A stretch of 64,000 nucleotides of DNA from an uncultured Gammaproteobacteria bacterium (GTDB taxonomy: Bacteria; Patescibacteriota; Patescibacteriia; Magasanikbacterales; GWA2-37-8): contig CAZBWU010000003.1 in assembly GCA_964496095.1 (NCBI GenBank), forward strand, positions 1,901 through 65,900, read 5' to 3'. The position numbers and the translations under genes are program-made. Position 1 is the first letter of the stretch. Each line of letters opens with the position of its first letter. The notes beneath the pieces were generated by a model. That model ran no database searches. It was given only the letters and a program-made list of their open reading frames with translations, and was not told where the DNA came from. Positions 23,903-56,963 of the stretch are shown in pieces.

Positions 23903-23921
23903 ACCTATTAAGTTAGTTATT

Positions 23922-24021
23922 TTGTCATCCTGAACCCCCGCAAGCGAGGATAAATTCCATGAAGGACCTCTGTCCGTTTGTTTTTTTGGACAGGGATTCT
24001 TCGCTCTGCTCAGAATGACAA
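23922..24021. mobile_element. MITE-like palindromic element, copy 2 (just upstream of atpF)
   Basis: tgtcatcctgaac...ggacctctgtcc...ggacagggattcttcgctctgctcagaatgacaa, with terminal inverted repeats and an internal hairpin. Confidence 0.7.
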
Positions 24022-24072
24022 AACGGTAAATAATCCCACTAAGCTGGGTATTTACATACCCAGCCAATTGAA

Positions 24073-30524: not shown

Positions 30525-30600
30525 CTGTCATCCTGAGCTTTAGCGAAGGATCCCTTTCAGTTGTAGTTTAAGGGATTCTTCATTTCATTCAGAATGACAA
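30525..30600. mobile_element. MITE-like palindromic element, copy 3
   Basis: tgtcatcctgagctttagcgaaggatccc...gggattcttcatttcattcagaatgacaa. Confidence 0.65.
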
Positions 30601-33301: not shown

Positions 33302-33700
33302 ATGTCCAAAAACATCGCCATAATCCTCGGAGAGTTCCATAAAAAAGAAGTGGCAGAAATGCTAAACGAAGCTCGCAAAATAGCCAAGGAAAATAATTTA
33401 AAAATTACAGAAGAAATTTGGGTTACCGGTTCCTATGAAAAGCCTTTAGCTTTGAAGCGGGTTTTGAAGAAGAAAAATATTGCGGGTGCGGTGCTGCTTG
33501 GTATTATTGAGCGTGGAGAAACCAAGCATGGTCTGGTTATGGGTCAAGTGGTCATGCAAGCTGTAGTTAATTTGGAACTAGAATTTATGAAACCAGTTGG
33601 TATTGGTATTTTGGGCCCAGAAATTTTACCTGAACAAATCAACCCTCGCTTATTACCACATGCCAGACAGGCGGTGTTGGCGGTGGCAAAAATGTTATAA
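33302..33700 (+). CDS. 6,7-dimethyl-8-ribityllumazine synthase-like protein
   Basis: 132 aa. IAIILGEF...IWVTGSYEKP...GAVLLGIIERGETKHG resembles RibH flavodoxin-fold motifs. Confidence 0.45.
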   Translation: MSKNIAIILGEFHKKEVAEMLNEARKIAKENNLKITEEIWVTGSYEKPLALKRVLKKKNIAGAVLLGIIERGETKHGLVMGQVVMQAVVNLELEFMKPVGIGILGPEILPEQINPRLLPHARQAVLAVAKML

Positions 33701-35917
33701 ATTTACAACCTTCAAAATCTTCTCCTTAATCCCCTCTGGTGACATCCCAGCCAAATCATAAACTTCTTTTACATTTCCAGATTTGAGGTAATGATTTATC
33801 CCGATGGCCTTTTGATTATAATTTTCTGTCAACATAAATGGATATAAAAACCCTGGCCAACCATTATGTAATGTGACAACTAGTTTTCTTTCTTCATCTG
33901 ACAAAATACTTTCCGCTTTTTCAGGATTTGTTTTTCTAAGGTCTTCAAATAATTCTGGCGAAGTGACAGCGATAATTTTTACATCAAGATTTTGTTTTTC
34001 AAGTTCTGGTAAAATTTCTAGAACATTTTGTAATATTTGGGAGCCGGAGATTACTAAGACGATTTTTTTATTGTTAGGAATAGATCCCTCGTCGGCTACG
34101 GCCTCGCTCGGGATGACAGTGTTGGAAAATTGTTTGTAAACATACGCACCGTTGCTAGATTCAATCGCTTTTGGCACACCATTAGACCTGTTCAAAACTG
34201 GCATTTCCGGCCTAGAGACAGACAAAACAATCGGTTCGCCTTTTTCTAAAGATGCAAAAAGCATCTCAATAGTCTCGTTGGCATCTAGGGGCTTGTAGAC
34301 CTTGATCCCAGGCAAAGCAGTATAAAGTGACATCCAATACATTCCCTGATGTGTAGGACCATCCTCGCCGGTTTCTGGACCATCGTGGGCTGCGAGTGCG
34401 ATAAAAAAGCCTTTCAATTCGGGGTTGAGCTGGTTGCCAATGACAGCCAAGCGAATAGCATTACCCATCATCGTAGTAAAGACTGCAAAAGTGCCAAACA
34501 CCGATACTGGTCTATACCCACCAGGCAAAACATCCATCGTCAGTCCTGCACCCATCATCGCCATATTTTGTTCGGCAATACCAAAGCGAATACCACGACC
34601 CAAAGGATTCTGTTTACTAATAATTCCATAAACTTCTTCGGCGCTATTGGTAAAGACAGATTTTGATAAGTCCCCTGCTCCGGCATAAAAAAACGCAGTC
34701 TGTTTCATAAACCAATTCATCCAGGCTTGTGCAGCTTTGCGAGTAGAAACTTTTTCTCCTTCTTTAAAAACTAATTCGGGAGGTAAATTTTTTGGACGAC
34801 GAATAGAAAGTGGATTAACAATCGGTCTACCTGCCAACGATTTTTTCATTTGATTTACCAATACTGATTCAGGTAAAACTTTTTTGGCACCCACTTCCAA
34901 TCTTTCTAAAATATATTTTTCATCTTCTGCGCTTATTTCACTCATCACAGTTTCTATATCAGACATCACGTCACCTTTTTTACCCTCTATAAAAAACCCT
35001 AATTGTTTCATTATCTCTACATAGTCATCATGCTTGACTGGTGAACCGTGAGAAGCAGCAGTGTTTTCTAGTTTGCCATAGCCTTTACCTTTGAGAGTAT
35101 GACACAGCACGACTGTCGGCTGATTATTTTCAAACCCTTGAGCTGCTAGGTGGTAGGCTTGCGCGACTTCTACAACATTATGACCGTTTACTTCTATCAA
35201 ATTCCAACCTAGCCCTAGCCAATGATTGATATATGGCGAAGAAATAACTTCTTCGATATCGGCGTCAATACCAAAATGATTATAATCCAAACTGACAATC
35301 AAATTTTTGAGACCATTGGTGGAGGCCAAATTGCGCGCTTCATAGGTCATACCTTCTTCGCTCTCGGCATCACCCATAAATACCCAAGTTTTGGTATCTA
35401 GTCCCGAGGCTTGGTGAGACATCGCAATTCCTACCGCTGCTGAAAAACCATGACCAGATGGGCCGGTAGTAAAATCAGAATAAGGATAACTAGACTCAGC
35501 ATGTCCTTGCGGACCATCGGCGTGACGGAAACGAATTAAGTCTTCTAATGTAGCTGCTTTGACCACGGCTTCAGAGAATTGCCGACCACCTCGACGCAAG
35601 ATTTCATAATACAAAGCTTGCCCGGCAAAAAGTAATGGTGTGCAGTGCCCTGCGCTCCAAATCAATCTGTCTCGGCCAGGATTTTTGGGCAACATTGGAT
35701 CATAAGCCAATACTCCACCCAAAGTCATAGCCAAAAATTGTTCTACCTTGCCACTACTACCAGGATGACCAGACTGCCCCGCTTCAACAGTGGCAAAAAT
35801 AAGGCCACGTAAAACTCTGGCTAACTTTTCCATCTTAGGAATATCTATACCTTCTAGATTTGTTATTTTTTTCTTTTGGAGGTTTAGGTATTGGGGGGCT
35901 GAGGGGTTTTTGGTCAT
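33695..35917 (-). CDS. tkt: transketolase (740 aa; carries an in-frame 13-codon MITE half-element)
   Basis: TPP-binding GHPGSSGKVEQF, pyrimidine-binding and C-terminal domains. The segment TVIPSEAVADEGS is encoded by the repeat unit at 34083-34119. Confidence 0.8.
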   Translation of the reverse strand: MTKNPSAPQYLNLQKKKITNLEGIDIPKMEKLARVLRGLIFATVEAGQSGHPGSSGKVEQFLAMTLGGVLAYDPMLPKNPGRDRLIWSAGHCTPLLFAGQALYYEILRRGGRQFSEAVVKAATLEDLIRFRHADGPQGHAESSYPYSDFTTGPSGHGFSAAVGIAMSHQASGLDTKTWVFMGDAESEEGMTYEARNLASTNGLKNLIVSLDYNHFGIDADIEEVISSPYINHWLGLGWNLIEVNGHNVVEVAQAYHLAAQGFENNQPTVVLCHTLKGKGYGKLENTAASHGSPVKHDDYVEIMKQLGFFIEGKKGDVMSDIETVMSEISAEDEKYILERLEVGAKKVLPESVLVNQMKKSLAGRPIVNPLSIRRPKNLPPELVFKEGEKVSTRKAAQAWMNWFMKQTAFFYAGAGDLSKSVFTNSAEEVYGIISKQNPLGRGIRFGIAEQNMAMMGAGLTMDVLPGGYRPVSVFGTFAVFTTMMGNAIRLAVIGNQLNPELKGFFIALAAHDGPETGEDGPTHQGMYWMSLYTALPGIKVYKPLDANETIEMLFASLEKGEPIVLSVSRPEMPVLNRSNGVPKAIESSNGAYVYKQFSNTVIPSEAVADEGSIPNNKKIVLVISGSQILQNVLEILPELEKQNLDVKIIAVTSPELFEDLRKTNPEKAESILSDEERKLVVTLHNGWPGFLYPFMLTENYNQKAIGINHYLKSGNVKEVYDLAGMSPEGIKEKILKVVNL
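34083..34119. mobile_element. MITE half-unit inserted in-frame in tkt
   Basis: gatccctcgtcggctacggcctcgctcgggatgaca is the exact reverse complement of the left half of copy 1. Confidence 0.7.
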
Positions 35918-35939
35918 AGAACAAACTAAAATTTTTAAA

Positions 35940-36353
35940 CTATGTCAAAATTATAATTGCAACTAACGCTCCTTGTTCCTTAATTCTGAAAGTTCCCCCT
36001 ACTTCATCTTGAAAAACTTCCTCTAATCTTTCGGGGTCATAAACAGCTATAGCTGGTTTACTATAACCACTGAGCGAAGTTGCGAATAAAAAAGGGTTTT
36101 CATGCCGATCTTCTTCAGGATTAAAATTTATTTCTGGTCTAGCATAAAAGATATTATCTGGATCTAACATCTGGTCTAGAGATTTTTTATTAGCATTAAA
36201 ACCGCAATATAAAAGACCCGGACGGTAAAATTTTTGTTTTTTTAATTCGTCAAGAAAAATGCTAATTTGTTGAGATTCGTCCCACCCTACTGATGTATCA
36301 ATTATAAATTTTAACGATTCAAGTTCTTTACCGTCTATTCGTTCAATTGTCAT
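35940..36353 (-). CDS. hypothetical protein
   Basis: 137-aa ORF, no recognised motif. Confidence 0.35.
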   Translation of the reverse strand: MTIERIDGKELESLKFIIDTSVGWDESQQISIFLDELKKQKFYRPGLLYCGFNANKKSLDQMLDPDNIFYARPEINFNPEEDRHENPFLFATSLSGYSKPAIAVYDPERLEEVFQDEVGGTFRIKEQGALVAIIILT

Positions 36354-36382
36354 AAAAGCTCAACTTAATAGAGTAATTTTAA

Positions 36383-37003
36383 TTAATCATTTATTAGATT
36401 AATTCTTTTGGCACAAATATTTACTACCTCTTCTGCATTGCTTACACCACAAATACAGACTTCGTTTAGGAAAGCACGGTGTAGATCAAATCGGCTCATA
36501 GGTAACGGACCTGTTTTCATTTTTAAAACCACCACATTTTTTTCACTTCCACCAATCTTTGTACCATCGGCAAATTCCTTCCATTGAATTGAGTTTATCT
36601 TGCTTTTTTGAAGATGTATTAATCTGGTAGGCGTGCTTACAAAAATACCACTATTTTTAAACAAGGGTTTAATACCAAGCACTAGCAGAACAATTCCAGC
36701 CACTATCAAGGCACCAGCGAACACAACCGCCGAAGTGGCTTGCTCTAAATGGCCTGGAGAAACACGTTCAAACTGAAAATGTGTAATGAAATTTGAATAA
36801 AAATAAGCTTCTTTACCCTGAAAAATTCGTAAAAAATTATAGACCAAATCAGAAATTGACCACAAACAAATAGCTAATCCAAAAAGTATAAAGTACTTTG
36901 ATGTCTCAGCTATGTAAAAACCCTTGGACTCTAAAACAAAATCTGGTTTTTCAGAACCAATTATATCGTTTAATTCTGCCGGTAAGGGAATATTCTTGAT
37001 CAT
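36383..37003 (-). CDS. hypothetical membrane protein
   Basis: 206 aa, 2-3 TM helices. Confidence 0.4.
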   Translation of the reverse strand: MIKNIPLPAELNDIIGSEKPDFVLESKGFYIAETSKYFILFGLAICLWSISDLVYNFLRIFQGKEAYFYSNFITHFQFERVSPGHLEQATSAVVFAGALIVAGIVLLVLGIKPLFKNSGIFVSTPTRLIHLQKSKINSIQWKEFADGTKIGGSEKNVVVLKMKTGPLPMSRFDLHRAFLNEVCICGVSNAEEVVNICAKRINLIND

Positions 37004-37019
37004 AATTTAATAAATAATG

Positions 37020-37150
37020 TTTTTATTTTCTCCAGAACCTTTCCTGTTCAAACATCTACCCTTCCCACTTATAAAATTTCTAAATAATTACAAAAAGTTA
37101 ACGGCATACTGGTTCTAATTGTATCATTTTCTACTTTGCACTACAAATTA
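37020..37150 (-). pseudogene. remnant duplicate of the 3' end of the LtaS-like sulfatase gene
   Basis: ~80% nt identity to 37975-38100. The reverse frame gives VENDTIRTSMPLTFCNYLEIL*, compared with DVENDTVNSSTPLTLCEYLEFYKW... at the C-terminus of the intact gene. Confidence 0.5.
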
Positions 37151-37261
37151 ATCTCCCGGCCGGGATTTCTTGGTAATATCAATACCTCCTAGGTTTGGTT
37201 TTTTTCTTTTGAAGATTTAGGTATAAAAAATGAAAGGTTAGTTAAGGGAATATTTTTTTAA

Positions 37262-37633
37262 TTACTTTTTTGGAATTATAGAAATAGGTAAATAAATTAC
37301 TTTGGCTTCTTTGCCAGTTTCAAGCCCATCTTCCCTTGCCTCTCTTTCAGGCATTTTAAGAAAAGCTCGAACATTACGGGTGGCTTCATGGATTTCTTCC
37401 GAGGGTATATATAAATCCCGTAACTGCATGGTGAAACTTATCCATGCTTTATTAATCACTTGTGTAATATCATTGGGATTGGACACCCCTTTCTTTGCAT
37501 CAAAATAACAAACAAAAAACTTATCCTTTAAATCTTTTTCACTATTACCAGAAAGCAAACTCAGCTTTCGGATTATAGGATTAGTTATTTTTGAAATCAA
37601 CTGCTTCTCAATATTAGAAATATCGCCAATCAT
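37262..37633 (-). CDS. hypothetical protein
   Basis: 123-aa ORF. Confidence 0.35.
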   Translation of the reverse strand: MIGDISNIEKQLISKITNPIIRKLSLLSGNSEKDLKDKFFVCYFDAKKGVSNPNDITQVINKAWISFTMQLRDLYIPSEEIHEATRNVRAFLKMPEREAREDGLETGKEAKVIYLPISIIPKK

Positions 37634-37650
37634 AAAATAAACTTAACTCC

Positions 37651-37968
37651 CTATTTGCCTCTGTATTTTTTAGTGATAAATTTAGCAATTCTATAAACGT
37701 AGAAAAAAATAAATCCATAAATTAGAACGGTAAGGATAGCCATCGCAAAATATATCCAAGCTTCGAAATCATCCTTAAAATAATACTGCCCAAAAGCACC
37801 AAACATTAGTCCTCCAAGAACAAAAGCTACTGGTAATGCTAAAAATGCAGGAGCAAAGAAAAAATCCAACCCCGGTTCATTTCTAAAGATAATTAGAATA
37901 ACCCCGAATAAACAGCCGGCGAGAAAAAAATGTAACTCCCTTGATCTAATTATACTTCCTACATTCAT
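37651..37968 (-). CDS. hypothetical membrane protein
   Basis: 105 aa, 3 TM helices. Confidence 0.4.
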   Translation of the reverse strand: MNVGSIIRSRELHFFLAGCLFGVILIIFRNEPGLDFFFAPAFLALPVAFVLGGLMFGAFGQYYFKDDFEAWIYFAMAILTVLIYGFIFFYVYRIAKFITKKYRGK

Positions 37969-37974
37969 AAGATT

Positions 37975-40359
37975 TTATATTCCCCAAAATCTACCTTCCT
38001 GAAACATCTGTCGTTTCCACTTATAAAATTCTAAATATTCACACAAAGTTAACGGCGTACTAGAATTAACTGTATCATTTTCCACATCACACTTCAAATC
38101 ACTTGGAATCTGATAACTTACGTTACGTTTTCCATTTTCTTCTTGATTAATATACAAGCCGTATTCATGCATGCCCAAAATATTTTGATATTTTTCTCTA
38201 TCATCAAAAATTGAATGACCTTCAAAATTATTTTCCGGATTAATATTTAAAATTTGTAATAAAGTGGGAGCGATATCTATACTAGAAGAATAGAGGTTAA
38301 CTTCTTTTGACAATGTCGGTTGTCTGTCATTCTGAGCGGAGTGAAGAATCTTTCCGTTTGAAAGCTCTTGCTCGGAAAGATCCCTCGTCGCCTTTAAAGG
38401 CTCGCTCGGGATGACAGTTGTTGATTGTGGCACGTACATCATCAACATGTTTTCATCATAAAAACTCAGTTTTTTTGCATCTGCAGGAAATAAATTTTTA
38501 ATCTCAGCTCCTGGAAAGGCTGAGTGATCTGCTACTGCCACCACAATTGTATTGTCGTAATATTCACTATTTCTGAACTGCTCCCAAAACTGACCAAAAG
38601 CATCGTCGGCTGTATAGTATGAATTTAAAACATTATTTTTACCATCTCCATACATAATCATATCTTTGGCCAAATCAAATGGCGGATGCGTATCTACCGT
38701 GGAGAGCATCATTAAAAATGGCTCTTCTTGTTTTTTACTAATTAATTTTCTTTCTACCATATCCCACATAAAATTAAAAAGTTGGTGATCCGAATAACCC
38801 CAAGATAACGGTTCGTTTCCCGTTAGTTTTTTAATCTCTGCTTGTCCATAGATATTTTCCACATCCATACTTCCAAAAATCGAAGCTTTGTTTTCAAATT
38901 CTTTAGGTACGGCGGTGATATAAGTGTTGTAATAACCATTTTCTTTCAAGATGTTTGACAAACAAAGCAAACGTAGTCTCTGTAAATTTTTATTATCTTC
39001 TATCTCAGTATAACCGGTCGGAGGCAAAAAAGAACAAAGCTGAGCCAGAATACCGTTGATAGTCGGTGTTGAAGCGTTAAAATAATTTTTAAAAATAGTT
39101 GTGTGCGGATCGTTAGCCATTTTTTCTAAGTTAGGTGTGAGTCCTGATAAATTTTTGTTGTAAACACTTGTCAATCGACTGGAGAAAGATTCAAAAAAAA
39201 GAATAATAACATTTGGCTTTTGCTTGATTAAATCTTCTGGCAAAAGTTTTTTAACGGCAGTGAAAACCTTATCTCGATGCGCCAAATCAAACCGATCGGT
39301 GTCATAAAACAGACCAAATTTTTCTAACTTTTGTTTTACCACTGGACTTAAAACTGCCTCTGATTTGTCACCTTTAAAAAATTCATAAAAATTTCTGGCG
39401 ATTGTATATTCCGGAGTGTTTTGGAAAGAACTTAAGCCCAACAAAGACACCAGCGCCACCGCAATCAAAGCCATACTATAATATGACCATTGGCGAAAAG
39501 AACTTTTTTGATATGATTTAATAATTTGACGAAAGATTAAAATAAAAATTATAAGAACTAATACACCAATAGATCCAACCAGAATACTAAAACTATTCAA
39601 CGTAACACCCGATGAACCTTGGGCCACTTCTAGCATTAAAGGACTAAGATAAAGCCCTGTAAAATATAAAATACCTATGTTTGCAACCCATACAGACAAA
39701 ATTAAAACAAAAAACAAAACCCATAATCCTAAAACTAAATAACGCCAAATTGATTTTGTTTTCGAGTAAATCAGCGTAGCTAGAGCAAAACCCAAAATCA
39801 AAAACATGGTCATTGCCCAAGCGCGGAACAAAACTATGTTATGAAATTTTAAGTAGTTGTCAAAGTTGGCCAGACGAAATGCTAAATATTGAAACACGGA
39901 AAAGAAAATAAACAAGAAAAAAATTAAAGTAAAAATATTTTTGTTTACCAACTTCCACTGATGAGCGTCGGGATGAAAGGAAATATATTTTTGGGTTCGC
40001 CAGAAAAACAAACCCATTAGCAACAAAAATACTACTAGACTCAAAATTTGATTTGGACTAAAAAATACCAAGAAAAAAAGTGAGAAATAAAAAAACAGGT
40101 TGTCTAAAAATAAACCGAATTCTTTTTGCCAAAAAATATGGCGATTAAATTTGGCAGTAAAGAAATGATAGGACCACTTGAAAATATGGTAGCCGACAAA
40201 AACCGTAATCCAAATCACAAACACCTTAATCAAAAAAGGGTTATAGGGTTTATGTTTGAAGTGGTACCAGCTCCAACCAGAGGAAATAATAAAAGAACCG
40301 GCTAAGGTCTGCACTATCCCCCACCAAGATTTAAGTTTACCGAAGATTGTTTTAAGCAT
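37975..40359 (-). CDS. LtaS-like membrane sulfatase / alkaline-phosphatase-superfamily protein (794 aa; carries a full in-frame MITE)
   Basis: N-terminal polytopic domain followed by a C-terminal sulfatase domain. The stretch VIPSEPLKATRDLSEQELSNGKILHSAQNDRQ is the translation of MITE copy 5. Confidence 0.65.
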   Translation of the reverse strand: MLKTIFGKLKSWWGIVQTLAGSFIISSGWSWYHFKHKPYNPFLIKVFVIWITVFVGYHIFKWSYHFFTAKFNRHIFWQKEFGLFLDNLFFYFSLFFLVFFSPNQILSLVVFLLLMGLFFWRTQKYISFHPDAHQWKLVNKNIFTLIFFLFIFFSVFQYLAFRLANFDNYLKFHNIVLFRAWAMTMFLILGFALATLIYSKTKSIWRYLVLGLWVLFFVLILSVWVANIGILYFTGLYLSPLMLEVAQGSSGVTLNSFSILVGSIGVLVLIIFILIFRQIIKSYQKSSFRQWSYYSMALIAVALVSLLGLSSFQNTPEYTIARNFYEFFKGDKSEAVLSPVVKQKLEKFGLFYDTDRFDLAHRDKVFTAVKKLLPEDLIKQKPNVIILFFESFSSRLTSVYNKNLSGLTPNLEKMANDPHTTIFKNYFNASTPTINGILAQLCSFLPPTGYTEIEDNKNLQRLRLLCLSNILKENGYYNTYITAVPKEFENKASIFGSMDVENIYGQAEIKKLTGNEPLSWGYSDHQLFNFMWDMVERKLISKKQEEPFLMMLSTVDTHPPFDLAKDMIMYGDGKNNVLNSYYTADDAFGQFWEQFRNSEYYDNTIVVAVADHSAFPGAEIKNLFPADAKKLSFYDENMLMMYVPQSTTVIPSEPLKATRDLSEQELSNGKILHSAQNDRQPTLSKEVNLYSSSIDIAPTLLQILNINPENNFEGHSIFDDREKYQNILGMHEYGLYINQEENGKRNVSYQIPSDLKCDVENDTVNSSTPLTLCEYLEFYKWKRQMFQEGRFWGI
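38325..38416. mobile_element. MITE-like palindromic element, copy 5 (in-frame in the sulfatase-like gene)
   Basis: tgtcattctgagcggagtgaagaatc...gatccctcgtcgcc...ggctcgctcgggatgaca. Confidence 0.7.
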
Positions 40360-40363
40360 TAAA

Positions 40364-40723
40364 TTAGAGCTCGATTTCGTATTCTTTGGCTTGGCGTCTT
40401 TGTTTCTTTTCTTTTTCAGTGACTCTTTGTTTCATTTTATATTTTTTAAGTTCTGATTCCAAGTAATCACGAATCATATCAATGGCTTTGTAAAGTGTGT
40501 CAGCTGATTTGGAAGCAAACAGATCCTTGCCAGCGACTTGTAATTTATACTCTGCAAAAAACATATCCCCTTTGGTGTGGTGTTTACTGTTTATACCCAC
40601 CACTACCTCAGTACGAATAATGCCGTTATTGTAAAATTTATTTAATGACTCGGCTTTTTTGGTAGCATACTCTTTGATAGCGTCTGTGAGATCCATGCCT
40701 CGGCCTGTTATTTGTGTTTTCAT
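40364..40723 (-). CDS. hpf: ribosome hibernation promoting factor (RaiA/HPF, S30AE family)
   Basis: MKTQITGRGMDLTDAIKEYATKK..., 119 aa. Confidence 0.85.
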   Translation of the reverse strand: MKTQITGRGMDLTDAIKEYATKKAESLNKFYNNGIIRTEVVVGINSKHHTKGDMFFAEYKLQVAGKDLFASKSADTLYKAIDMIRDYLESELKKYKMKQRVTEKEKKQRRQAKEYEIEL

Positions 40724-40742
40724 ACTAGAATGAATTAATTTC

Positions 40743-40821
40743 TGTCATCCTGAACGCACTGAAGGATCTCTATCAGTTCTTAAAAATTGGACAGAGATTC
40801 TTCGCGTTGCTCAGAATGACA
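40743..40821. mobile_element. MITE-like palindromic element, copy 6
   Basis: tgtcatcctgaacgcactgaaggatctct...agagattcttcgcgttgctcagaatgaca. Confidence 0.7.
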
Positions 40822-40829
40822 TTTTTAAA

Positions 40830-41777
40830 TTATTTAACTATTTGTACTTCTGGCTCCAATTCTATTCCATATCTATCATACACTTTTTGCTTAATCTTTT
40901 CAACCAAACCTAAAACATCCGCTTGGGTGGCATGATCAAAATTTATTAAGTAGTTGCCGTGCTCATCTGAAATCTTGGCTCCACCCACTGCCAAACCGCG
41001 CAAACCTAACTGTTCCGTAAGCCAACCCACAGGCACAGTACCTCTTTTTAAAAATAATTCTGGTAAATCTTTTGTATCCTGCACCCACTGATGTAATTTG
41101 ATATTTTTAAAGAAACTGCCAGCCGAAGGAAAAGCTGTGTGTTTGCGTTGTTTGAGGTATCCTTGCATCCTCTCCATAATTTCTGCCTTATCTCCCGGTT
41201 CCAAATAAATTTCTCCGCGTAAAATAATATCTTTATTATGTTTAAAATCACTATTGCGATAACTAAAACCACACTCTTCTACTTTGAGCCTTATTACTTC
41301 TCCATCACGCCACACTTCTGCCCAAGTTAAATTATTTTTTATTTCTTTTCCCATCGCTCCCGCATTGCCCCGAATCGCTCCACCAAAGGTACCTGGAATA
41401 CCAATCGCCCAATCAAACCCTGTCAGACTGTTCTGAGATGCCAAATTAACCACAGCACTAAGTTTTACTCCAGCTTCAGCTTCTATCAGCATCCCATTAC
41501 CGCTAGGTGTTATTTTTGGCGCAGTATTTGTAGAAATTTTGACTACGACCCCGTCGAAACCATCGTCACTCATAAGTAGATTGGACCCACCTGCAACCAC
41601 AAAATAATCCAACCCCTCAGCGCTTAGATAGTTAAATAACCCAACAAGCTTATCAGTTTTAGTCACATTAACAAACAGACGAGCAGGACCGCCGATTTTG
41701 AAGGTCGTATGTTTTGTTAAAGATTCATTGATTTTAACATCGCCGAATTCTTTGAGTTTTTGGTATTGTTCGTCCAT
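40830..41777 (-). CDS. murB: UDP-N-acetylenolpyruvoylglucosamine reductase
   Basis: FAD-binding TTFKIGGPARLFV, 315 aa. Confidence 0.85.
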   Translation of the reverse strand: MDEQYQKLKEFGDVKINESLTKHTTFKIGGPARLFVNVTKTDKLVGLFNYLSAEGLDYFVVAGGSNLLMSDDGFDGVVVKISTNTAPKITPSGNGMLIEAEAGVKLSAVVNLASQNSLTGFDWAIGIPGTFGGAIRGNAGAMGKEIKNNLTWAEVWRDGEVIRLKVEECGFSYRNSDFKHNKDIILRGEIYLEPGDKAEIMERMQGYLKQRKHTAFPSAGSFFKNIKLHQWVQDTKDLPELFLKRGTVPVGWLTEQLGLRGLAVGGAKISDEHGNYLINFDHATQADVLGLVEKIKQKVYDRYGIELEPEVQIVK

Positions 41778-41784
41778 AATTTCT

Positions 41785-41900
41785 TGTCATTGTCATTCCG
41801 AATCCCCCTTGTGGGGTGAGGAATCTATTCATTAACTTTAAGGTACTAAAATGTATAGATCCCTCGTCAGCCGCAGGAGCGGCTTCGCTCGGGATGACAA
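41785..41900. mobile_element. MITE-like palindromic element, copy 7 (upstream of murB)
   Basis: tgtcattgtcattccgaatccccc...gaggaatc...gatccctcgtcagccgcaggagcggcttcgctcgggatgacaa. Confidence 0.7.
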
Positions 41901-42040
41901 CGGTACTACAACCTTGCTTTTACGCCCTTTTTAGGCTATTATATTCATCAGTATATATCATTTGATGATATAATTGCAATTCGCTCGGAATAGCTTACAA
42001 GTAAGCTATTCTCTCACTTCATTACAATTATAGTAAATTT

Positions 42041-43351
42041 ATGGCAATTTCAAATGCATTAAATTCGGCCATTGCCAAGCGGTTATCCAAACACCGCCTG
42101 TTTTATGTTTGCCGAGATGTGGAACGGGCTTTTGTGTCAGGCTTATCTTTAGGCAATTACTATATAATAACCAACTCAAACACTTATTCTGCCAAGCTAG
42201 CCAAATCTAACAATAACATTATTTTAATAAAAAATAAACAACCCCTTGATACAGCTGAACTTTTACAACACCTTGAAGTAAAAAAAATAATTCAAGCCAA
42301 AGATTTTGTAGTCGTTTTTAAAAATAACGCCATCGTCAAAAATATCTGTCAAAAAAATAAGTGGCAATTACTTAATCCTGACTTCAAATTGGCAGACGAA
42401 ATCGAAAGTAAAATTTCTCAAATAACATGGCTCGGAAAATTAGCGAAATATTTACCTCCACACAAAGTTGACCTTTGCCAAAATATAAACTGGGGTGGAG
42501 AAAAATTTATTTTACAGTTTAATCATTCTCATACTGGCGCTGGTACTTTTTTAATAAATTCCAAAAAACAATTAGCTGAATTAAAAAATAAATTTCCAAA
42601 TCGCGAGATTCGGACTATAAAATTTATCGAGGGGCCAGTTTTCACTAACAACAATGTGATTTGGAACGATAAAACATTAATAGGTAATATTAACTATCAA
42701 ATCACCGGCCTATCCCCTTTTACAGATAATAAATTTACGACCATTGGCAATGATTGGTCTCTACCACCTAAGATTTTAAACAACAACCAGATAAAGCAGT
42801 ACGAAAAAATTGCTCATGATATTGGCACAAAAATGGCTAAAAATGGTTGGAAAGGATTGTTTGGAATTGATATGATAATGGATGAAAAAAGCGGACAATT
42901 ATACCTATTAGAGATAAACGCTCGTCAGCCTGCTTCGACTACTTTTGAATCACAACTACAAACACTTGTCATTCTGAGTGAAGTCGCTCTTGAGGCTGAC
43001 GAGAAATCTATTCCAAAAAAACAAGACAGAGATCCCTCACCCCGTAAAGGGTTCGGGATGACAAAATTGACCACAACTTTTGAAGCACACTTGGCTAGCT
43101 TTTTAAACATACCTAATAAAAACTACCAGCTCACTGCCATAAACAATGGCGCGCAAATCATCCAACGTGTCACAAAAAATATTTCTAATCCTAAATTTAT
43201 TCTAAAAAATAAATCGATTTTAAATGTAATAAATTATAAAAATAAAACCATCGGCTCAGACCTAGTCCGTATTCAATGCCAAGAAGGTCTGATGGCCAAG
43301 CATAATGTTTTAAATAAGCTAGGAAAAAATATCCGAGACTCAATATGTTAA
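42041..43351 (+). CDS. ATP-grasp domain ligase (carries an in-frame MITE)
   Basis: LFGIDMIMDEKSGQLYLLEINARQPAST is an ATP-grasp C-terminal motif. VILSEVALEADEKSIPKKQDRDPSPRKGFGMT is encoded by MITE copy 8. Confidence 0.6.
   Translation: MAISNALNSAIAKRLSKHRLFYVCRDVERAFVSGLSLGNYYIITNSNTYSAKLAKSNNNIILIKNKQPLDTAELLQHLEVKKIIQAKDFVVVFKNNAIVKNICQKNKWQLLNPDFKLADEIESKISQITWLGKLAKYLPPHKVDLCQNINWGGEKFILQFNHSHTGAGTFLINSKKQLAELKNKFPNREIRTIKFIEGPVFTNNNVIWNDKTLIGNINYQITGLSPFTDNKFTTIGNDWSLPPKILNNNQIKQYEKIAHDIGTKMAKNGWKGLFGIDMIMDEKSGQLYLLEINARQPASTTFESQLQTLVILSEVALEADEKSIPKKQDRDPSPRKGFGMTKLTTTFEAHLASFLNIPNKNYQLTAINNGAQIIQRVTKNISNPKFILKNKSILNVINYKNKTIGSDLVRIQCQEGLMAKHNVLNKLGKNIRDSIC
42967..43064. mobile_element. 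MITE-like palindromic element, copy 8 (in-frame in the ATP-grasp gene)
   Basis: tgtcattctgagtgaagtcgctc...gatccctcaccccgtaaagggttcgggatgacaa. Confidence 0.7.
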
Positions 43352-44118
43352 ACCAAACAAAAATCTCACCTGAGGCTGAAAAGGTAATTGAAGATTATCT
43401 TAACCTCCCCTTTCCAAACATAGACGGAGTTAGATGTCCTTATTTTAATAATGCCAGACTTGGCCAAAGAGGACAGCTTAAAGTTTTGGTGGGCAAAGGC
43501 ACACCTCAAGAAATTGTAGAAGAAGCAAAAATAATTGCTATCCAATACAAACAAGAAATTTCAAAAGCCGGCATTACACCCGAACATATTCGTAAGTTTT
43601 TAATTGACCACAACCTTGGTGTTGATTGTTCCGGTTTTATTAGTAATGTTTTGATTGCTCACTTGGCTACTAGAGGTAGTCATCTCACCAAAAAAATGTT
43701 TATCACCCCAAAAGCAAATGTTTTGCGCTGGCTTATTAGTCATTTGCGACCTGTAGAGCAAATAAATGTAAAAGTTTATGCGGATAATAGAAACACAGAA
43801 AAAATTGACGACCTTTCCAAAATTGAAGCTGGTGATTTGGTGGTAATGCTTAGCACTGGTCCGAAAAAAAATCATGATCATATACTACTTATCACCGAAA
43901 CCCAAGATAATGTTTTACATTATGCCCATGCTCGTGCCTGGTCATCCGAGGGTAGATACGGCCATGGCGTTTCGACTGGTACTATTACCCTCAACAATCC
44001 AAATAAAGGACTACTAGATCAAACTTGGGAAGAAAAAGATAAATTAAATCAAAATAACGAAACATATTGGGAAGCAAGAGATGCAACTGTTTTGGAAATT
44101 AGACGCTTAAAATTTTAA
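43345..44118 (+). CDS. hypothetical protein, possible papain-fold (NlpC/P60- or BtrH-like) Cys peptidase/acyltransferase
   Basis: GVDCSGFISNVL, later NHDHILLITE and HYAHA, consistent with a Cys...His...His triad. Weak. Confidence 0.3.
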   Translation: MLNQTKISPEAEKVIEDYLNLPFPNIDGVRCPYFNNARLGQRGQLKVLVGKGTPQEIVEEAKIIAIQYKQEISKAGITPEHIRKFLIDHNLGVDCSGFISNVLIAHLATRGSHLTKKMFITPKANVLRWLISHLRPVEQINVKVYADNRNTEKIDDLSKIEAGDLVVMLSTGPKKNHDHILLITETQDNVLHYAHARAWSSEGRYGHGVSTGTITLNNPNKGLLDQTWEEKDKLNQNNETYWEARDATVLEIRRLKF

Positions 44119-44126
44119 ATACTACT

Positions 44127-45242
44127 ATGAACATGGGTCTAATCCAGCACGCCCTCACCTATATAATATTTTCCGCCATTGGCGCGTTTATTTGGGCGCC
44201 CTTGCTCACAAAATTTTTATACAAATACAAGATAACTCGTCGAGATGAATTTGATTTCAGTCTCAAAGGCGAAAGAAGCCAAAAGGTGGGCACGCCGATT
44301 ATGGGCGGACTCTTGGTAATAGTCACCGTCGTAATTATTACCATGATTTTTAACTGGAACCGAGAAAATACTTATGTGCCAATTGGTGTAATGACAATTG
44401 CAGCTTTACTTGGCGGAGCTGATGACCTACTAAATATTTTTGGCAAAAAAAGACGCGACCGAAAAATTTCACACATCATTACTCTAATCAAAGTTCATAA
44501 AAATATCTTCATGAAGCTTTGGTATATTTTTATTCTTCCTTGGGAAGTATTTCGTCGAGCGACAGCAATTCTAGGTTCTCATCCTGGCAGAGGTATACAG
44601 GTGCATGAAAAATTATTATTTCAATTTATCGCCGGCGCTATCACTGCTTGGTGGATCTATTTCAAACTCGGCATTCAATGGCACGCCTTATGGATACCGT
44701 TTGATGGTAATCCAAATATCGGCTGGTGGATAATTCCAATTGTTATCTTTTTTGTTATGTTTACGGCCAATGCAGTCAACTTTGCCGATGGACTCGATGG
44801 ACTGGTGGGCGGATCTCTTATCCTTACTTTTTTGGGACTGATGATTATTAGCTGGACCGAAGGCAGAGTTTCATTTATGTATCTCAACGCTACTGTTGTC
44901 GGCGCATTAGTTGCCTATACGTATTTTAATATCAAACCCGCGCGCTTCCAGATGGGAGATGTGGGGTCGCTTGGGTTGGGAGCGCTACTAGCAATTAATG
45001 CCATTGCTATTAACCGCACCATGCTTATCCCCTTCCTTGGTTTTATTTTTTATGTAGAAATTATTTCAGTAATTATTCAAGTATTTTTCCGTCGATTACT
45101 GGGACGAAGATTTTTCAAAATGGCTCCTATCCACCACCACTTTGAATTCCGTGGTTGGAGTGAAGAAAAAATTGTGATGCGCTTTTGGCTTATTCATGGA
45201 TTTTTTGTAATCTTGGCAATTTGGATGAGTCTTTACAAGTAA
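44127..45242 (+). CDS. mraY: phospho-N-acetylmuramoyl-pentapeptide transferase
   Basis: ANAVNFADGLDGLVGG and PIHHHFE signatures, 10 TM helices. Confidence 0.8.
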   Translation: MNMGLIQHALTYIIFSAIGAFIWAPLLTKFLYKYKITRRDEFDFSLKGERSQKVGTPIMGGLLVIVTVVIITMIFNWNRENTYVPIGVMTIAALLGGADDLLNIFGKKRRDRKISHIITLIKVHKNIFMKLWYIFILPWEVFRRATAILGSHPGRGIQVHEKLLFQFIAGAITAWWIYFKLGIQWHALWIPFDGNPNIGWWIIPIVIFFVMFTANAVNFADGLDGLVGGSLILTFLGLMIISWTEGRVSFMYLNATVVGALVAYTYFNIKPARFQMGDVGSLGLGALLAINAIAINRTMLIPFLGFIFYVEIISVIIQVFFRRLLGRRFFKMAPIHHHFEFRGWSEEKIVMRFWLIHGFFVILAIWMSLYK

Positions 45243-45245
45243 AAT

Positions 45246-45980
45246 ATGTACCTATCCTGGAACGAAAAAACAATAACCGATTTTTCTGATGAAAATATAG
45301 AGTCCGCTTATAATGACGGCTATGTTTTTACGCGTGTTGGCAAAGGTGTAATGAAACAAACCAGAAGCCTGAGAATTGATTTAAGTAAATTTGAGTTATC
45401 TTCGGAGAATAAAAGAATTTTAAAAAAAACCGAAGAGTTAGATTTGAGCATATTCCCTATTCCTTATGAGAAATATACTTGGGAGATACATAAGCTAGGC
45501 AAAAATTTTTATGAACATAAATTTGGCAAAGGAACTTTTAGCGCGCAAAAAATAAAAGAGCTAATAACAGACAAAGAAAAAAGTAATTTCAATCAGCTGT
45601 TTGTGTATTCACTTCCAACTGTCATTCTGAACGAAGTGAAGAATCCCTTAAGCCAAGACAAAAGGGATCCTTCGGTCGCAGAGCTCCCTCAGGATGACAA
45701 ACGACTCGAAACGGGCTACTGCATAGCCTTAGAAACAAAAAATGTCCTACACTACTGCTATCCGTTTTATAACCTAGAAGTAAACTATCCAAATCTTGGC
45801 ATGGGTATGATGCTCAAAGCTATTGTTTGGGCAAAAAAAAATAATAAAAAGTATATTTATCTGGGTAGTTTTTCACGACCAACCGATACTTACAAATTAC
45901 AGTTCTCCGGATTAGAATGGTTTGATGGAAAAAATTGGCAGACAAGCACAGATGAATTAAAAAATGTCTTACATAATTAA
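45246..45980 (+). CDS. hypothetical protein (carries an in-frame MITE)
   Basis: 244 aa. TVILNEVKNPLSQDKRDPSVAELPQDDK is encoded by MITE copy 9. The cell-wall context hints at a GNAT-fold aminoacyl-transferase-like protein, but this is unproven. Confidence 0.4.
   Translation: MYLSWNEKTITDFSDENIESAYNDGYVFTRVGKGVMKQTRSLRIDLSKFELSSENKRILKKTEELDLSIFPIPYEKYTWEIHKLGKNFYEHKFGKGTFSAQKIKELITDKEKSNFNQLFVYSLPTVILNEVKNPLSQDKRDPSVAELPQDDKRLETGYCIALETKNVLHYCYPFYNLEVNYPNLGMGMMLKAIVWAKKNNKKYIYLGSFSRPTDTYKLQFSGLEWFDGKNWQTSTDELKNVLHN
45620..45700. mobile_element. MITE-like palindromic element, copy 9 (in-frame, 81 nt = 27 codons)
   Basis: tgtcattctgaacgaagtgaagaatccc...gggatccttcggtcgcagagctccctcaggatgacaa. 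Confidence 0.7.
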
Positions 45981-51286: not shown

Positions 51287-51412
51287 TGTCATTCTGAGTG
51301 TAGCGCCCGCCCGTACCGAACGAGTACGTTCGGGCGGGAAGAATCCCTGTCCAAATTTAATAATGACAAACGAACAGAGATCCCTCGGGGCGAACCCCGC
51401 TCGGGATGACAG
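51287..51412. mobile_element. MITE-like palindromic element, copy 10
   Basis: tgtcattctgagtgtagcgcccgcccgtaccgaacgagtacgttcgggcggg...gatccctcggggcgaaccccgctcgggatgaca. Its terminal ATGACA supplies the ATG called at 51406. Confidence 0.7.
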
Positions 51413-52800: not shown

Positions 52801-53220
52801 AATCCGCCAGAGGCGGATTGTTAGCCAGATGGATTCAAACTTCACCACTTTCAGTGGTTCTTTTTCATCTCATCGCTAACAACAAAAAAACCATCCAGAG
52901 AGAGTCACCTAAATAACTAATCGAAATTATTTATTCAGGCGATCGGATGGTGATTTTGCAAGACAGATAAATCTGTCTATTTTTATTTACTAACTTGTTT
53001 GCCCACTCCTTATTAAGGAGGGGGGGAGGTCTTATCTATAACCCCTCCTGCGCCTCCCCTTCTTAAAGGGAGGACAACTAGTAAATACAAATAGCTAGAT
53101 TTGAATTGTAGATTTGAAAGAGCGGTAAAGCCGAGGAGGAAGCGCGTAGGGTGACCAGGCTAACGCGTGTCGCGCAGCCCGGCAATAGCCAGGCGACATC
53201 CTCCTGTTTGGGAGTGGCGG

Positions 53221-54000
53221 TTAGCCGCCCCCGACCTTCACGACCACACTGGCCCGGTAGGGCCCGCACGCGATCGTGTAGGTGTAGGTGCCGGGGTTAC
53301 CATTCCCGGCCAGAAATATACTGCTACGGCCGGTGCCTGGCCGATCGATGGCGGGCCAATCACCATCGCCACTGGAGTCGCAGGCTGCTGCCAATGACTC
53401 CCAGTCGAGGTAAATTCTGTCGCCAGCCGCGACAGAATACCACCCACCGGTGTTCCAGGTGGCGGGCGTGGGCACGCCGGCGATGTTGACAAGGACATCA
53501 AAGCGCATCGCGTAGGCCACCAGGGCCTTCGCGTCGCTCATGTCCTCATCCTCGCACACCAGACCGTAGATCGTCTCGCCGAATGGCAGGACGACCTCAG
53601 TCTGCCCAGTCGTCGGCGGCAGGTCCTGGGCCACCCAGTCCCCGCTAACCTGCGCCACGCCGTTGATGGCGGTCGCCCGTTCGCAGGTAGTGGACGAGAT
53701 GGCACTTACCACCTCGTAGCCGAGGACCACCGGCTCCCCAACACGGAGGTTCCGCACCTCCTGCGGGGCCGCCAGCTCCGCGGCCGTGAGGCTCACGGAG
53801 AGAACAGGCCTCGGCGGCAGCGGCAGGCCGATCTCCTGGTTGCCCAGGAACCCCACTGCGGCCGCCGGCGGCTTGCCCGGAGGCTGGTCATCGCCACCCC
53901 CGCCAGCGGGGGTGAAGCCGCACCCCTCGAGAAGGAGTGCGAGCGCGAAGACGAGCGCGCAGAGCGCGCACACCAAGAGGCATTTACGGATGTCCCACAT
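53221..54000 (-). CDS. GC-rich island gene 4: secreted lipoprotein
   Basis: MWDIRKCLLVCALCALVFALALLLEGCG has a lipobox, and AGGGGG lies 8 nt upstream. GC content ~68%. Confidence 0.55.
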   Translation of the reverse strand: MWDIRKCLLVCALCALVFALALLLEGCGFTPAGGGGDDQPPGKPPAAAVGFLGNQEIGLPLPPRPVLSVSLTAAELAAPQEVRNLRVGEPVVLGYEVVSAISSTTCERATAINGVAQVSGDWVAQDLPPTTGQTEVVLPFGETIYGLVCEDEDMSDAKALVAYAMRFDVLVNIAGVPTPATWNTGGWYSVAAGDRIYLDWESLAAACDSSGDGDWPAIDRPGTGRSSIFLAGNGNPGTYTYTIACGPYRASVVVKVGGG

Positions 54001-54457
54001 GATGGACACCCCCTTTCCGGCCCAAGCGGGCCATTACCCAACGGGCCCAGAAAATGTCAAAGTACCGAACGACACAGCATGTGTCGCCCTTCATTGAGTT
54101 TAGAAAATCAATTCTAAACTCTAGAAGAACAACATTTTTTTAAAATGCTATACATTTAGTATAGCATTTTAGTTTTTTTCTGACTATTTATAATCTTTTA
54201 GAACCTATCATTCCCCTACCTAGTAGGAAAATAAATTAGTTTTAAACTTTAAACCTTGCTTCCGACGAGGTGTGTGTTACCACAACACCTCGTCGTCCTC
54301 ACCTAGACCTGGCCGTGGCGCTCGAAACTCGAGCGGCCAGATTGGCCATGCGATGGTCCAGAGTGAGATTTTGGGCAGCTTGTTAAAGCCACCACTTCCC
54401 TGGGGGTAAAACCCCTCCTCCGATTAGGGCAGGTCGGATGAGGCTCGAGGCGCGCTA

Positions 54458-55129
54458 CTACGGCAGGGTGTGCCGGTTGCGCCCGTCGATGTTGCAGCCG
54501 AAGCCACCCTCCCCACCGGCCAGCCAGTAGGCCGGTTGGGTCGCCGGCTGGCCCGGCCACGACAGGTTGCAGGTGCAGCCCTGCGGGAGGTGGGCCAGCC
54601 ACCACGCCGGACCCTTGGTGAAGTCCTCCCAGCGGAGGACCCACAGGATCGTGACCGACGTGGCCGTCGTCGGCGCGACGCGGTTGCCGCTGCCGTTGGC
54701 CGCGAGGGGCACCGGGTCGCCGACCGGCGTGGCCGCCGGGGCGGCGTACCACTGGACGCCCGTGGTGATCCGCTCGAGATCCGTGCTGGCCGCGCACGTG
54801 ATCGACCAGGGCTGGCCGGTCGGGCTGCAGACGTTCGGGCTGGCCGTGTTGCAGGACCAGCCGGTCTCGACCGTGCAGGTCGAGCTGCAGCCGTCGCCGT
54901 TGGCGAGGTTGCCCTGGTCGCACTGCTCGGCGCCGGCCTTGATGCCGTCGCCGCAGATGGCGGCGGACGGGGCGTCCGGGGGCGTCACCGCACCGTCGAT
55001 CGGGGGCGGGTTGGCGGCGTCGACCTCGTCACCGCCGGAGGGGTTCTCGCCCTCCATGGTGCAACCGACGCCGATGACCGCCGTGATGCCGATGATGGAC
55101 GCGCACAGGAACTTGCTGAACTTGAACAT
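54458..55129 (-). CDS. GC-rich island gene 1: secreted Cys-rich protein with Myxococcales-type Cys repeat
   Basis: GGAGG SD 5 nt upstream, signal peptide MFKFSKFLCASIIGITAVIGVGC, and the repeat ICGDGIKAGAEQCDQGNLANGDGCSSTC. Confidence 0.6.
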   Translation of the reverse strand: MFKFSKFLCASIIGITAVIGVGCTMEGENPSGGDEVDAANPPPIDGAVTPPDAPSAAICGDGIKAGAEQCDQGNLANGDGCSSTCTVETGWSCNTASPNVCSPTGQPWSITCAASTDLERITTGVQWYAAPAATPVGDPVPLAANGSGNRVAPTTATSVTILWVLRWEDFTKGPAWWLAHLPQGCTCNLSWPGQPATQPAYWLAGGEGGFGCNIDGRNRHTLP

Positions 55130-55626
55130 GAGAACCTCCGCTTGAGAATGCGTCCACCGCCGGAATGGCGACAGACATTGGGAAACGTTGGGTGCCGAAC
55201 AACTTGGTTTGATTCCTTGCATCTCCAATACGATAGGAGATGAGGATTCTTACCTTGTTCTCGACATTTCAATATCCCTTATTAAATAAAGAATGGTTTT
55301 AATTCTTTGCTTAATGCGGGATATTGATCCGGGTGGTTCTTCTTTTTTGATTGGTTTGATTTGTAAAGAGCTGATTTCCATCTCTATCATTCCCCTATCA
55401 TATAAGGAAATGATTCGATGTGGCCAGGTGCGTGAGCAGAGCTGGCCGTCGATCCGAACGAGGGCCTCCTAGATCCTCGTCGGGGTGATGGCGACTGCAG
55501 TGGCTCCGGATGGAGCCAACGAACAGCACGCACAGGATGTGCAGGTTGACGACGCGGGCGACGCGCGTCGTCGCTCCGACCGGTTGCACTTCCGGTCGGA
55601 GGGGGGTGGGGTCAGAGCGCGACGCG
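55130..55626. repeat. island upstream module copy A (leader + promoter + terminator block)
   Basis: 55257-55626 is ~100% identical (one 1-nt indel) to 56586-56962. 55111-55270 is identical to 57496-57670 apart from 1 nt. Confidence 0.9.
55214..55246 (-). promoter_or_regulatory. conserved 5'-leader hairpin (catctcc...ggagatg) ~85 nt upstream of the start codon
   Basis: Retained in all three leader copies (55214-55246, 56553-56585, 57609-57641) even in the diverged copy B. Confidence 0.5.
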
Positions 55627-56460: not shown

Positions 56461-56962
56461 GACGTAGCTCCTCATGAGAGAGTGGTGCGTCCATCGCCGG
56501 AATGGCGGACGGACATTGGGAACCATTCGGGTATCGAACAACTCAGTTTGATTCCTTGCATCTCCACTACGATAGGAGATGAGGAGTCATTCTTTGTTCT
56601 CGACATTTTCAATATCCCTTATTAAATAAAGAATGGTTTTAATTCTTTGCTTAATGCGGGATATTGATCCGGGTGGTTCTTCTTTTTTGATTGGTTTGAT
56701 TTGTAAAGAGCTGATTTCCATCTCTATCATTCCCCTATCATATAAGGAAATGATTCGATGTGGCCAGGTGCGTGAGCAGAGCTGGCCGTCGATCCGAACG
56801 AGGGCCTCCTAGATCCTCGTCGGGGTGATGGCGACTGCAGTGGCTCCGGATGGAGCCAACGAACAGCACGCACAGGATGTGCAGGTTGACGACGCGGGCG
56901 ACGCGCGTCGTCGCTCCGACCGGTTGCACTTCCGGTCGGAGGGGGGTGGGGTCAGAGCGCGA
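56461..56962. repeat. island upstream module copy B
   Basis: See copy A. The leader part (56461-56588) has diverged by ~20%, while the 370-bp promoter/terminator block is identical. Confidence 0.9.
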
Positions 56963-56963
56963 C

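Follow-up and report, generated by a model that had tools for sequence, protein, structure and literature searches.

The CGTC-tagged superfamily of repetitive extragenic palindromic (REP) sequences was defined by Di Nocera, De Gregorio & Rocco (2013, BMC Genomics 14:522; PMC3733652). Its members carry an unpaired 4-nt tag, which varies to TGTC and to CCTC as well, a stem that starts with A-T, T-A and has 8–9 bp, a loop of 4–5 nt (their Table 1 for stem and loop) and a short 3′ tail with the consensus CCA. They are mostly found as inverted dimers with 20–100 bp spacers, heterodimers being frequent, are situated mainly in the spacers of co-directional genes in five phyla, and have no dedicated transposase. 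The Rickettsia palindromic elements RPE-6 and RPE-4 correspond to CGTC-1 and CGTC-4, respectively, and Neisseria dRS3 to CGTC-1. The supplementary table of the same paper shows many intragenic singles and dimers that encode about 8–30 residues; the dimer peptides, of 20–30 residues, begin with VIP or VIA and end with GMT, e.g. VIPWLDHGIQ...CGMT in R. conorii ampG and VIPAKAGI...IPAFAGMT in Sphingomonas. According to the authors, bulged variants may have escaped detection (PMC3733652). Here we describe a TGTC-tagged palindromic repeat in a stretch of 64,000 nt (the window: contig CAZBWU010000003.1, positions 1,901 to 65,900), copies of which are present in-frame in four protein-coding genes. 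It is likely that these copies represent a non-autonomous REP/REPIN-like palindromic element, inserted in-frame in tolerant loops, and that, within the CGTC/TGTC-tagged REP superfamily, they form a new branch with a GA bulge.

The window is AT-rich (about 36–38% GC) and gene-dense, and protein matches place it in Candidatus Magasanikbacteria, members of the candidate phyla radiation (CPR, or Patescibacteria). The terminus TGTCATYCYGA is found in 19 copies on both strands of the window, where 0.05 are expected from dinucleotide-preserving shuffles. Eighteen of these are the outward-facing ends of nine inverted doublets of 74–125 nt and the remaining one belongs to a solo half-element (Table 1). 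Thus the in-frame palindromic repeats inside genes that a preliminary description of this DNA had reported are real and far beyond chance. Rfam covariance models at the gathering score had 0 matches anywhere in the window, and a tRNA search was likewise negative.

All copies show the same half-element layout, TGTC / AT-YCY / GA / variable stem-loop / GA / RGR-AT / C. The TGTC tag is unpaired and is followed by a 5-bp basal stem (AT-YCY/RGR-AT), a symmetric GA/GA internal loop (tandem G.A/A.G) and an inner hairpin, which sets the length of the unit at 21–54 nt in the window. TGTC precedes the stem, and the stem starts with AT...AT, in 19 of 19 window copies; a C directly follows the stem in every copy. 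A doublet consists of a first half, a short spacer that is often partly palindromic and an inverted second half, with the tags outward. At stem position 3 one half reads ATC... and the other ATT... in all nine window doublets; thus each half is self-complementary, while end-to-end pairing of a doublet would always include a mismatch. A hammerhead-like core (CUGA...GA) and a kink-turn were also considered for this structure and were rejected, given that helix follows without a break on either side and that Rfam gave no match.

The four coding copies are situated in uninterrupted open reading frames (ORFs) of 740, 794, 436 and 244 aa that keep complete transketolase, sulfatase (LtaS-like), ATP-grasp and ATE_C Pfam domains, and the four peptides quoted in the preliminary description are found in the ORF translations where it had placed them. 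It had taken all four copies for palindromes, which holds for the three doublets; the transketolase copy is a single half in a 42-nt indel. Two syntenic relatives were recovered by way of ATP-grasp orthologues: L001, a contig of a metagenome-assembled genome at NCBI, and L003, an ENA contig, both with about 88% DNA identity to the window. Each of the four segments is missing in L003 or L001, leaving gaps of 42, 105, 99 and 84 nt, all multiples of three, yet the elements themselves measure 92, 97 and 80 nt in the three coding doublets. As the relatives lack exactly these segments and the gaps are multiples of three, the segments are lineage-specific in-frame insertions, which is what had been proposed. 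The inserts would add 14–35 amino acids to the host proteins.

The transketolase insert encodes approximately TVIPSEAVADEGSIP. L003 lacks positions 34073–34084 and 34090–34119 (42 nt in total), and against yeast transketolase the insert appears as a 17-residue gap at the linker of the Pyr and C-terminal domains. The half-element and the left half of the 18573–18669 doublet share 91% identity over 56 nt. The sulfatase insert encodes VIPSEPLKATRDLSEQELSNGKILHSAQNDRQ; here L003 lacks 38315–38378 plus 38385–38425 (105 nt), and its protein has 759 aa versus 794 aa in the window. About 44 extra residues are present at this insert relative to PDB LtaS-like chains. The ATP-grasp insert encodes VILSEVALEADEKSIPKKQDRDPSPRKGFGMT, and exactly 42966–43064 (99 nt) is absent from L001, where the 403 aa protein P0004 joins ...FESQLQ straight to KQGTSTFEAHL with no insert (protein alignment A1). 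The ATE_C-like insert encodes VILNEVKNPLSQDKRDPSVAELPQDDK; 84 nt are missing in L003, and the orthologues P0129, P0130, P0132 and P0133 join ...FVYSLNNA to DAGYCIALE, also with no insert (alignment A2). Junction-spanning peptides predicted from the ORFs include ...QFSNTVIPSEAVADEGSIPNNK... and ...LQTLVILSEVALEADEK....

Loop length varies across many orthologues, as it would if the segments were ancestral, fast-evolving loops that resemble the repeat by chance. However, the coding copies have complete 11-nt termini and are built as doublets in the way the intergenic copies are, the transketolase copy has its close intergenic counterpart, and the filled/empty pairs, with relatives at about 88% nt identity cleanly lacking the segments, contradict this reading, which has virtually no chance of being correct. 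It is also extremely improbable that the host genes are pseudogenes or the insertions assembly artefacts. Repeats can misassemble and CPR genomes come from metagenomes, but there is no stop or frameshift, the domain complements are full, and the four indels are all multiples of three (chance about 1/81 if length were unconstrained). Of importance here, the same insertions occur in independent assemblies, with an identical protein in a further assembly, L002, and the same ATP-grasp element in L003.

The conserved termini of the element are stop-free in two of the three frames on each side. At the near terminus the frames TGT-CAT-YCY-GAG and GTC-ATY-CYG-AGC are open, and at the far terminus CRG-RAT-GAC and RGR-ATG-ACA are open, TCR-GRA-TGA alone being closed. 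When the nine doublets are read in both orientations, no stop interrupts the GTC-ATY frame in 10 of 18 cases, versus 3 of 36 for the other frames. The four coding copies of the window display the V-I-(L/P) frame at one end and ...Q-(N/D)-D or ...G-M-T at the other; the C-H-(S/P)-E frame is used as well, in orthologues. A peptide ending in ...IRDE, which the preliminary description had given as the product of one orientation, is not seen in the four genes.

The elements might instead be removed from or skipped in the mRNA, by intron-like excision or ribosomal bypass, and never be represented in protein. They form stable hairpins, and CPR genomes are known for unusual insertions in their rRNA genes. 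Such removal needs no frame preservation, yet the four window copies and independent same-site variants keep the frame, and no Rfam ribozyme or intron matches; this explanation appears very unlikely.

A location of the inserts in surface loops had also been suggested. AlphaFold models built from orthologue alignments covered two of the four inserts. The ATP-grasp insert forms coil with a predicted local distance difference test (pLDDT) score below 50 (residues 297–344) in a model of moderate overall pLDDT (65). The ATE_C-like model has a pLDDT of 81.8, and in it the insert is coil of pLDDT <50 (131–150) between confident strands at 117–124 and 153–163. The loop location thus stands for these two inserts, as low-confidence coil, and for the transketolase gap at the domain linker. 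Taken with the orthologue and syntenic-DNA comparisons, the evidence supports in-frame insertion into intact genes at tolerant loops, in the manner of Rickettsia palindromic elements.

The ATP-grasp site displays four states at the same codon position among orthologues that are 83–90% identical in protein. It is empty in L001 and carries the element described above in the window. L003 keeps an ATP-grasp copy whose right half and spacer are identical to those of the window (about 60 nt without a difference) while the left inner hairpin is heavily different. A further locus, L124, has an element of another subfamily at this site, with a right half identical to that of the window's 30526 doublet. 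Intergenic doublets also differ in presence between the window, L001 and L003 (Table 1).

In the ATE_C-like loop some element-derived peptide is found in about two thirds of 30 aligned orthologues, in different frames and from different families; roughly 40% of the ATE_C-like orthologues appear to carry a copy, as judged from protein lengths and not counted. A sister repeat family (TGTCATTGCGAG..., with peptides CHCEEV...DEAIP and SLRGGRFASADAAIP) is situated in the same loop of P0146, P0169 and P0171, from other CPR genomes. Several tagged-hairpin families evidently share this loop as a hotspot, to judge from the aligned sequences. Hotspots of this kind could be the result of repeated insertion into a permissive or preferred site. 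Sites appear to turn over quickly, with certain loops hit or converted repeatedly.

In comparison with the CGTC REPs, the window element has the TGTC tag, the AT stem start, tag-outward dimers and intragenic copies in common, as well as the lack of a transposase, and the tabulated CGTC peptides share terminal codons with the VILSE...GFGMT peptides of the window. The differences lie in the stem, which is broken by the tandem G.A/A.G pair, and in the inner loop, for which a GNA triloop is the usual form, replaced in this genome by variable hairpins of up to about 40 nt. The canonical unit has nine stem positions, two of which are G.A/A.G, and a 3-nt loop, versus the published 8–9 contiguous bp and 4–5 nt loop. 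The VILSE/VIPSE peptide type is absent from the tabulated peptides, and the motif is found in more than 15 phyla including CPR, among the matches listed, versus five for the CGTC REPs.

RPE-4 and RPE-6 are likewise found in-frame in housekeeping genes, as singles and dimers, and share the terminal codons (VIP..., ...GMT), implying GTCATTCC/GGAATGAC ends. Their stems, as back-translated from the listed peptides, are continuous Watson-Crick (ATTCCGTGG/CCACGGAAT and ATTCCCGC/GCGGGAAT, respectively), and the host lineage differs. The resemblance to these elements looks like kinship and not analogy alone. RPE-1, which Ogata et al. reportedly described in 2000 as a Rickettsia palindrome whose in-frame insertion gives essential proteins new peptide segments at their surface, is the same phenomenon but is said to be longer and of different sequence. 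NCBIfam models, any RPE-domain model included, gave no match at E≤10 for the four element peptides.

The REPIN/RAYT (REP-associated tyrosine transposase) system and the E. coli REP/bacterial interspersed mosaic elements (BIME), for which work by Bertels & Rainey in 2011 and Nunvar in 2010 is said to be the source, also show a tagged hairpin unit and inverted doublets as the apparent replicating unit. They further resemble the window element in leaving no target duplication and in their presumed substrate, a single-stranded DNA hairpin. In contrast, their tag is GTAG and not TGTC, REPINs are lineage-restricted and not pan-bacterial, and no RAYT (a Y1 HUH transposase) is found beside any copy of the window element in the loci examined. 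Neisseria dRS3, a target of phage and insertion sequence (IS) integration, has a (C/T)GTC-ATTCC...GGAAT core like that of the window element, but its stem is short and continuous and its copies are clustered in mosaic elements.

The behaviour had been thought new for this element family. The GA-bulged family and its CPR hosts do appear undescribed, whereas in-frame behaviour is published for sister families; thus the phenomenon is a known one and not a new category. Among open-access papers, searches with the DNA strings and peptides of the window gave nothing relevant, and no description of a REP-like repeat or a MITE (a miniature transposable element with inverted repeats) in CPR genomes was found. 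The motif does not come up in the papers on RepRanger and on HUH phylogenomics. We believe the new parts to be the GA-bulged family and its very wide distribution, its activity in CPR genomes, the multi-allele hotspots among close relatives and the copies in phage genes.

A scan of one genome per species (GTDB set) with TGTCATYCYGARC-N2-8-YGARGRATC gave at least 120 loci, versus roughly 30 chance matches estimated for the whole collection. The phyla matched include Nitrospirota, Chloroflexota, Acidobacteriota, Bacteroidota, Bacillota, Verrucomicrobiota, Planctomycetota and Gemmatimonadota; further matches are found in several Pseudomonadota classes, Saccharibacteria, Gracilibacteria, Uhrbacteria and others. 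Covariation was followed in 163 copies from other phyla, taken from the GTDB matches listed, at the three variable stem positions that are free in the pattern (the AT stem start and the post-stem C are fixed by it and hence uninformative there). These pairs are Watson-Crick in 161, 162 and 160 of the 163 copies. As the base pairs covary almost perfectly, the hairpin is under selection. Tag-outward doublets are common at these loci, as both homodimers and heterodimers. The bases after the post-stem C are variable (TCG, TGC, TCA, TCT...), and CCA is found in 8 of 163. In one Dehalococcoidia chromosome (OZ244885.1; L029 6246–7142) seven hairpin copies form an approximately 329-bp tandem array in alternating orientation, and are thus clustered and not dispersed.

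The inner heptamer is RCGNAGY in 96 of the 163 external copies. We take it to be of the d(GCGNAGC) mini-hairpin type, a class that Hirao and colleagues reportedly found to be exceptionally stable in DNA. Taken jointly, this heptamer and the tandem G.A pairs suggest that the putative active form is a hairpin of single-stranded DNA.

The same pattern is found in at least 120 loci of IMG/VR viral contigs. In two of these, L142 (IMGVR_UViG_3300032160_001536) and L162 (IMGVR_UViG_3300031885_003864), element peptides (...SRSLASLGMT...; ...VILTLNEVKGKDL...SGASRNDR...) are present inside uninterrupted phage ORFs, and the host ORFs match terminase large subunit and SPP1-type portal Pfam models. Thus the in-frame behaviour extends to phage genes. 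That phages might move the element from one host to another is a speculation, as host DNA may be present in IMG/VR contigs.

More speculatively, the GA-bulged hairpin TGTCAT-YCY-GA-GCGNAGC-GA-RGR-ATC might be an undescribed pan-bacterial mobile single-stranded DNA hairpin, near-unchanged in more than 15 phyla and in phages, moved by a widely conserved enzyme and active enough in CPR to saturate permissive protein loops. We regard this as possible though rather doubtful; if true, such a hairpin would be a major source of new loop sequences for the proteins of reduced genomes.

No consistent target-site duplication is present at six filled/empty site pairs. Clustering of the ORFs of at least 90 aa around 120 listed genomic loci gave no linked transposase, only housekeeping families at no more than 7 loci each, and none is linked in 120 listed viral loci, where phage structural genes alone recur. 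As there is no consistent duplication and no recurring neighbour family, the element behaves as a non-autonomous REP-like repeat, and its mobilising enzyme would be encoded elsewhere or be a general host function. A BLAST search with a synthetic consensus doublet, a short and filtered query, gave one weak plasmid match and no phage match.

The TGTCAT...ATGACA termini resemble inverted repeats and the element is of the size usual for a classical MITE, i.e. a deletion derivative of a DDE-transposase IS with TG...CA terminal inverted repeats that moves by cut-and-paste. By the classical criteria the window element has the inverted termini and lacks a fixed-length duplication at the six filled/empty pairs. 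A MITE is unlikely on several further grounds: a functional-looking solo half exists, the covariation favours local hairpins over end-to-end pairing, no transposase is linked in either set of loci, and, unlike the ends of an IS, the motif has been conserved in more than 15 phyla.

Intergenic copies fill short spacers of co-directional genes, as reported for REPs (PMC3733652), and the structural covariation is strong. Both would agree with a hairpin that is a host-beneficial RNA or DNA signal, such as an operon spacer stabiliser, a terminator or a gyrase/integration host factor-type site, the coding copies being incidental. Against this, presence or absence differs between close relatives at intergenic sites too, and the spread and the coding hotspots would be unexplained. 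As a full account it is doubtful, though it deserves consideration; it is compatible with a REP-like mobile element and not opposed to it.

For the REP-like element the following course may be proposed. The basic unit would be a tagged hairpin of about 26–60 nt, made up of TGTC, the 5-bp stem, the internal loop of tandem G.A/A.G and an inner stem-loop that varies; the usual 74–125 nt doublet would consist of two such units that are unlike each other, inverted and with tags outward. Spread through the genome would leave no target-site duplication and would most likely involve hairpins of single-stranded DNA and an enzyme whose gene lies elsewhere, a step which we infer. Surviving copies would lie mostly in intergenic spacers. 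An insertion into a gene would survive only where it adds a net multiple of three nucleotides, has a stop-free element frame (by construction, GTC-ATY-CYG-A and two frames of the opposite terminus) and falls in a surface loop or linker that tolerates it. Frame preservation suggests that the element would then be translated as a disordered loop of 14–35 residues.

Several points weigh against this account. The orthologue sets consist of predicted proteins, which hides frameshifted alleles, and translation of the inserts is deduced from frame preservation and not observed. Nearest-neighbour DNA folding z-scores of single halves are mostly non-significant; as the folding model gives no credit to G.A pairs, the structural evidence is covariation only. 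Membership of the CGTC superfamily is likely but unproven, its stem and loop metrics being only loosely matched. The hotspots could equally be the result of one old insertion followed by gene conversion and occasional precise loss; presence/absence polymorphism and copy number are the grounds for calling the element mobile.

Two further copies lie at gene 5′ ends, and both are as the preliminary description had them. ORF 23357–24067 starts at TTG (24067) and reads through the 23923–24020 doublet in its open frame. The Pfam ATP-synt_B match begins at residue 88 and an ATG at about 23902 is found directly after the element; thus the extension of this atpF gene is probably spurious and the ATG at about 23902 the likelier start. 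In the Wzy_C-like ORF, the ATG at 51406 lies inside the ...GGGATGACA terminus of the 51287–51411 doublet, and a second in-frame ATG follows at 51424, 18 nt later. On the sequence, the start may be either of these.

In atpF and the Wzy-like gene, the element appears to make spurious 5′ ORF extensions and start codons, and it also gives many false 'hypothetical proteins'; masking of the element is advised for annotators. With the copies described here, the range of protein-coding palindromes, so far Rickettsia and a few other species, grows to include CPR/Patescibacteria and also phage structural genes, and specific loops are shown as recurrent hotspots with rapid turnover. A repeat conserved across most bacterial phyla may in addition provide a handle for finding the enzyme of CGTC-type REPs.

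Table 1. Copies of the TGTC-tagged palindromic repeat in the window (positions are those of the window; strand given where assigned).
Feature	Position	Strand	Remarks
Intergenic doublet	18573–18669		Fills the spacer between two minus-strand genes
Doublet	23923–24020		Just upstream of atpF; open in one frame
Intergenic doublet	30526–30599		Absent from L003
Solo half-element in transketolase gene	34077–34118	minus	Host gene 33695–35917, minus
Doublet in LtaS-type sulfatase gene	38325–38416		Host gene 37975–40359, minus
Intergenic doublet	40743–40821		Between hpf and murB; kept in L001 and L003
Intergenic doublet	41791–41899		Divergent murB / ATP-grasp spacer; absent from L001 and L003
Doublet in ATP-grasp gene	42967–43063		Host gene 42041–43351, plus
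Doublet in ATE_C-like gene	45620–45699		Host gene 45246–45980, plus
Intergenic doublet	51287–51411		ATGACA terminus gives the ATG at 51406 of the Wzy_C-like ORF

Other features of the window were also noted. The murB / ATP-grasp spacer contains, in addition to its doublet, an 87-nt segment (41942–42028) that is absent from L001 and L003. AT-rich inverted repeats are found in this segment together with a hairpin unlike that of the element (CGCTCGGAATAGCTTACAAGTAAGCTATTC), and it may represent a further small insertion, of another type. Two stretches of approximately 130 nt, 37021–37148 and 37973–38099, are 76–80% identical and lie about 950 nt apart, one of them at and downstream of the 3′ end of the sulfatase gene, which suggests a partial duplication of the segment encoding its C-terminal end.

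A high-GC island at 52900–58100 (50–61% GC versus about 36% elsewhere) has no TGTCAT elements inside. On its minus strand lie two to three paralogous genes that encode secreted proteins with cysteine-rich repeats of the form CxDG...C (e.g. ICGDGIKAGAEQCDQGNLANGDGCSSTC); the genes have upstream repeats of 270–300 nt that are near-identical (55267–55566 with 56607–56906, and 55091–55361 with 57486–57756). The island could be foreign DNA or a chimeric assembly. A minus-strand ORF of 1942 aa (58161–63989) extends nearly to the end of the window and is highly charged, with the look of a coiled coil.

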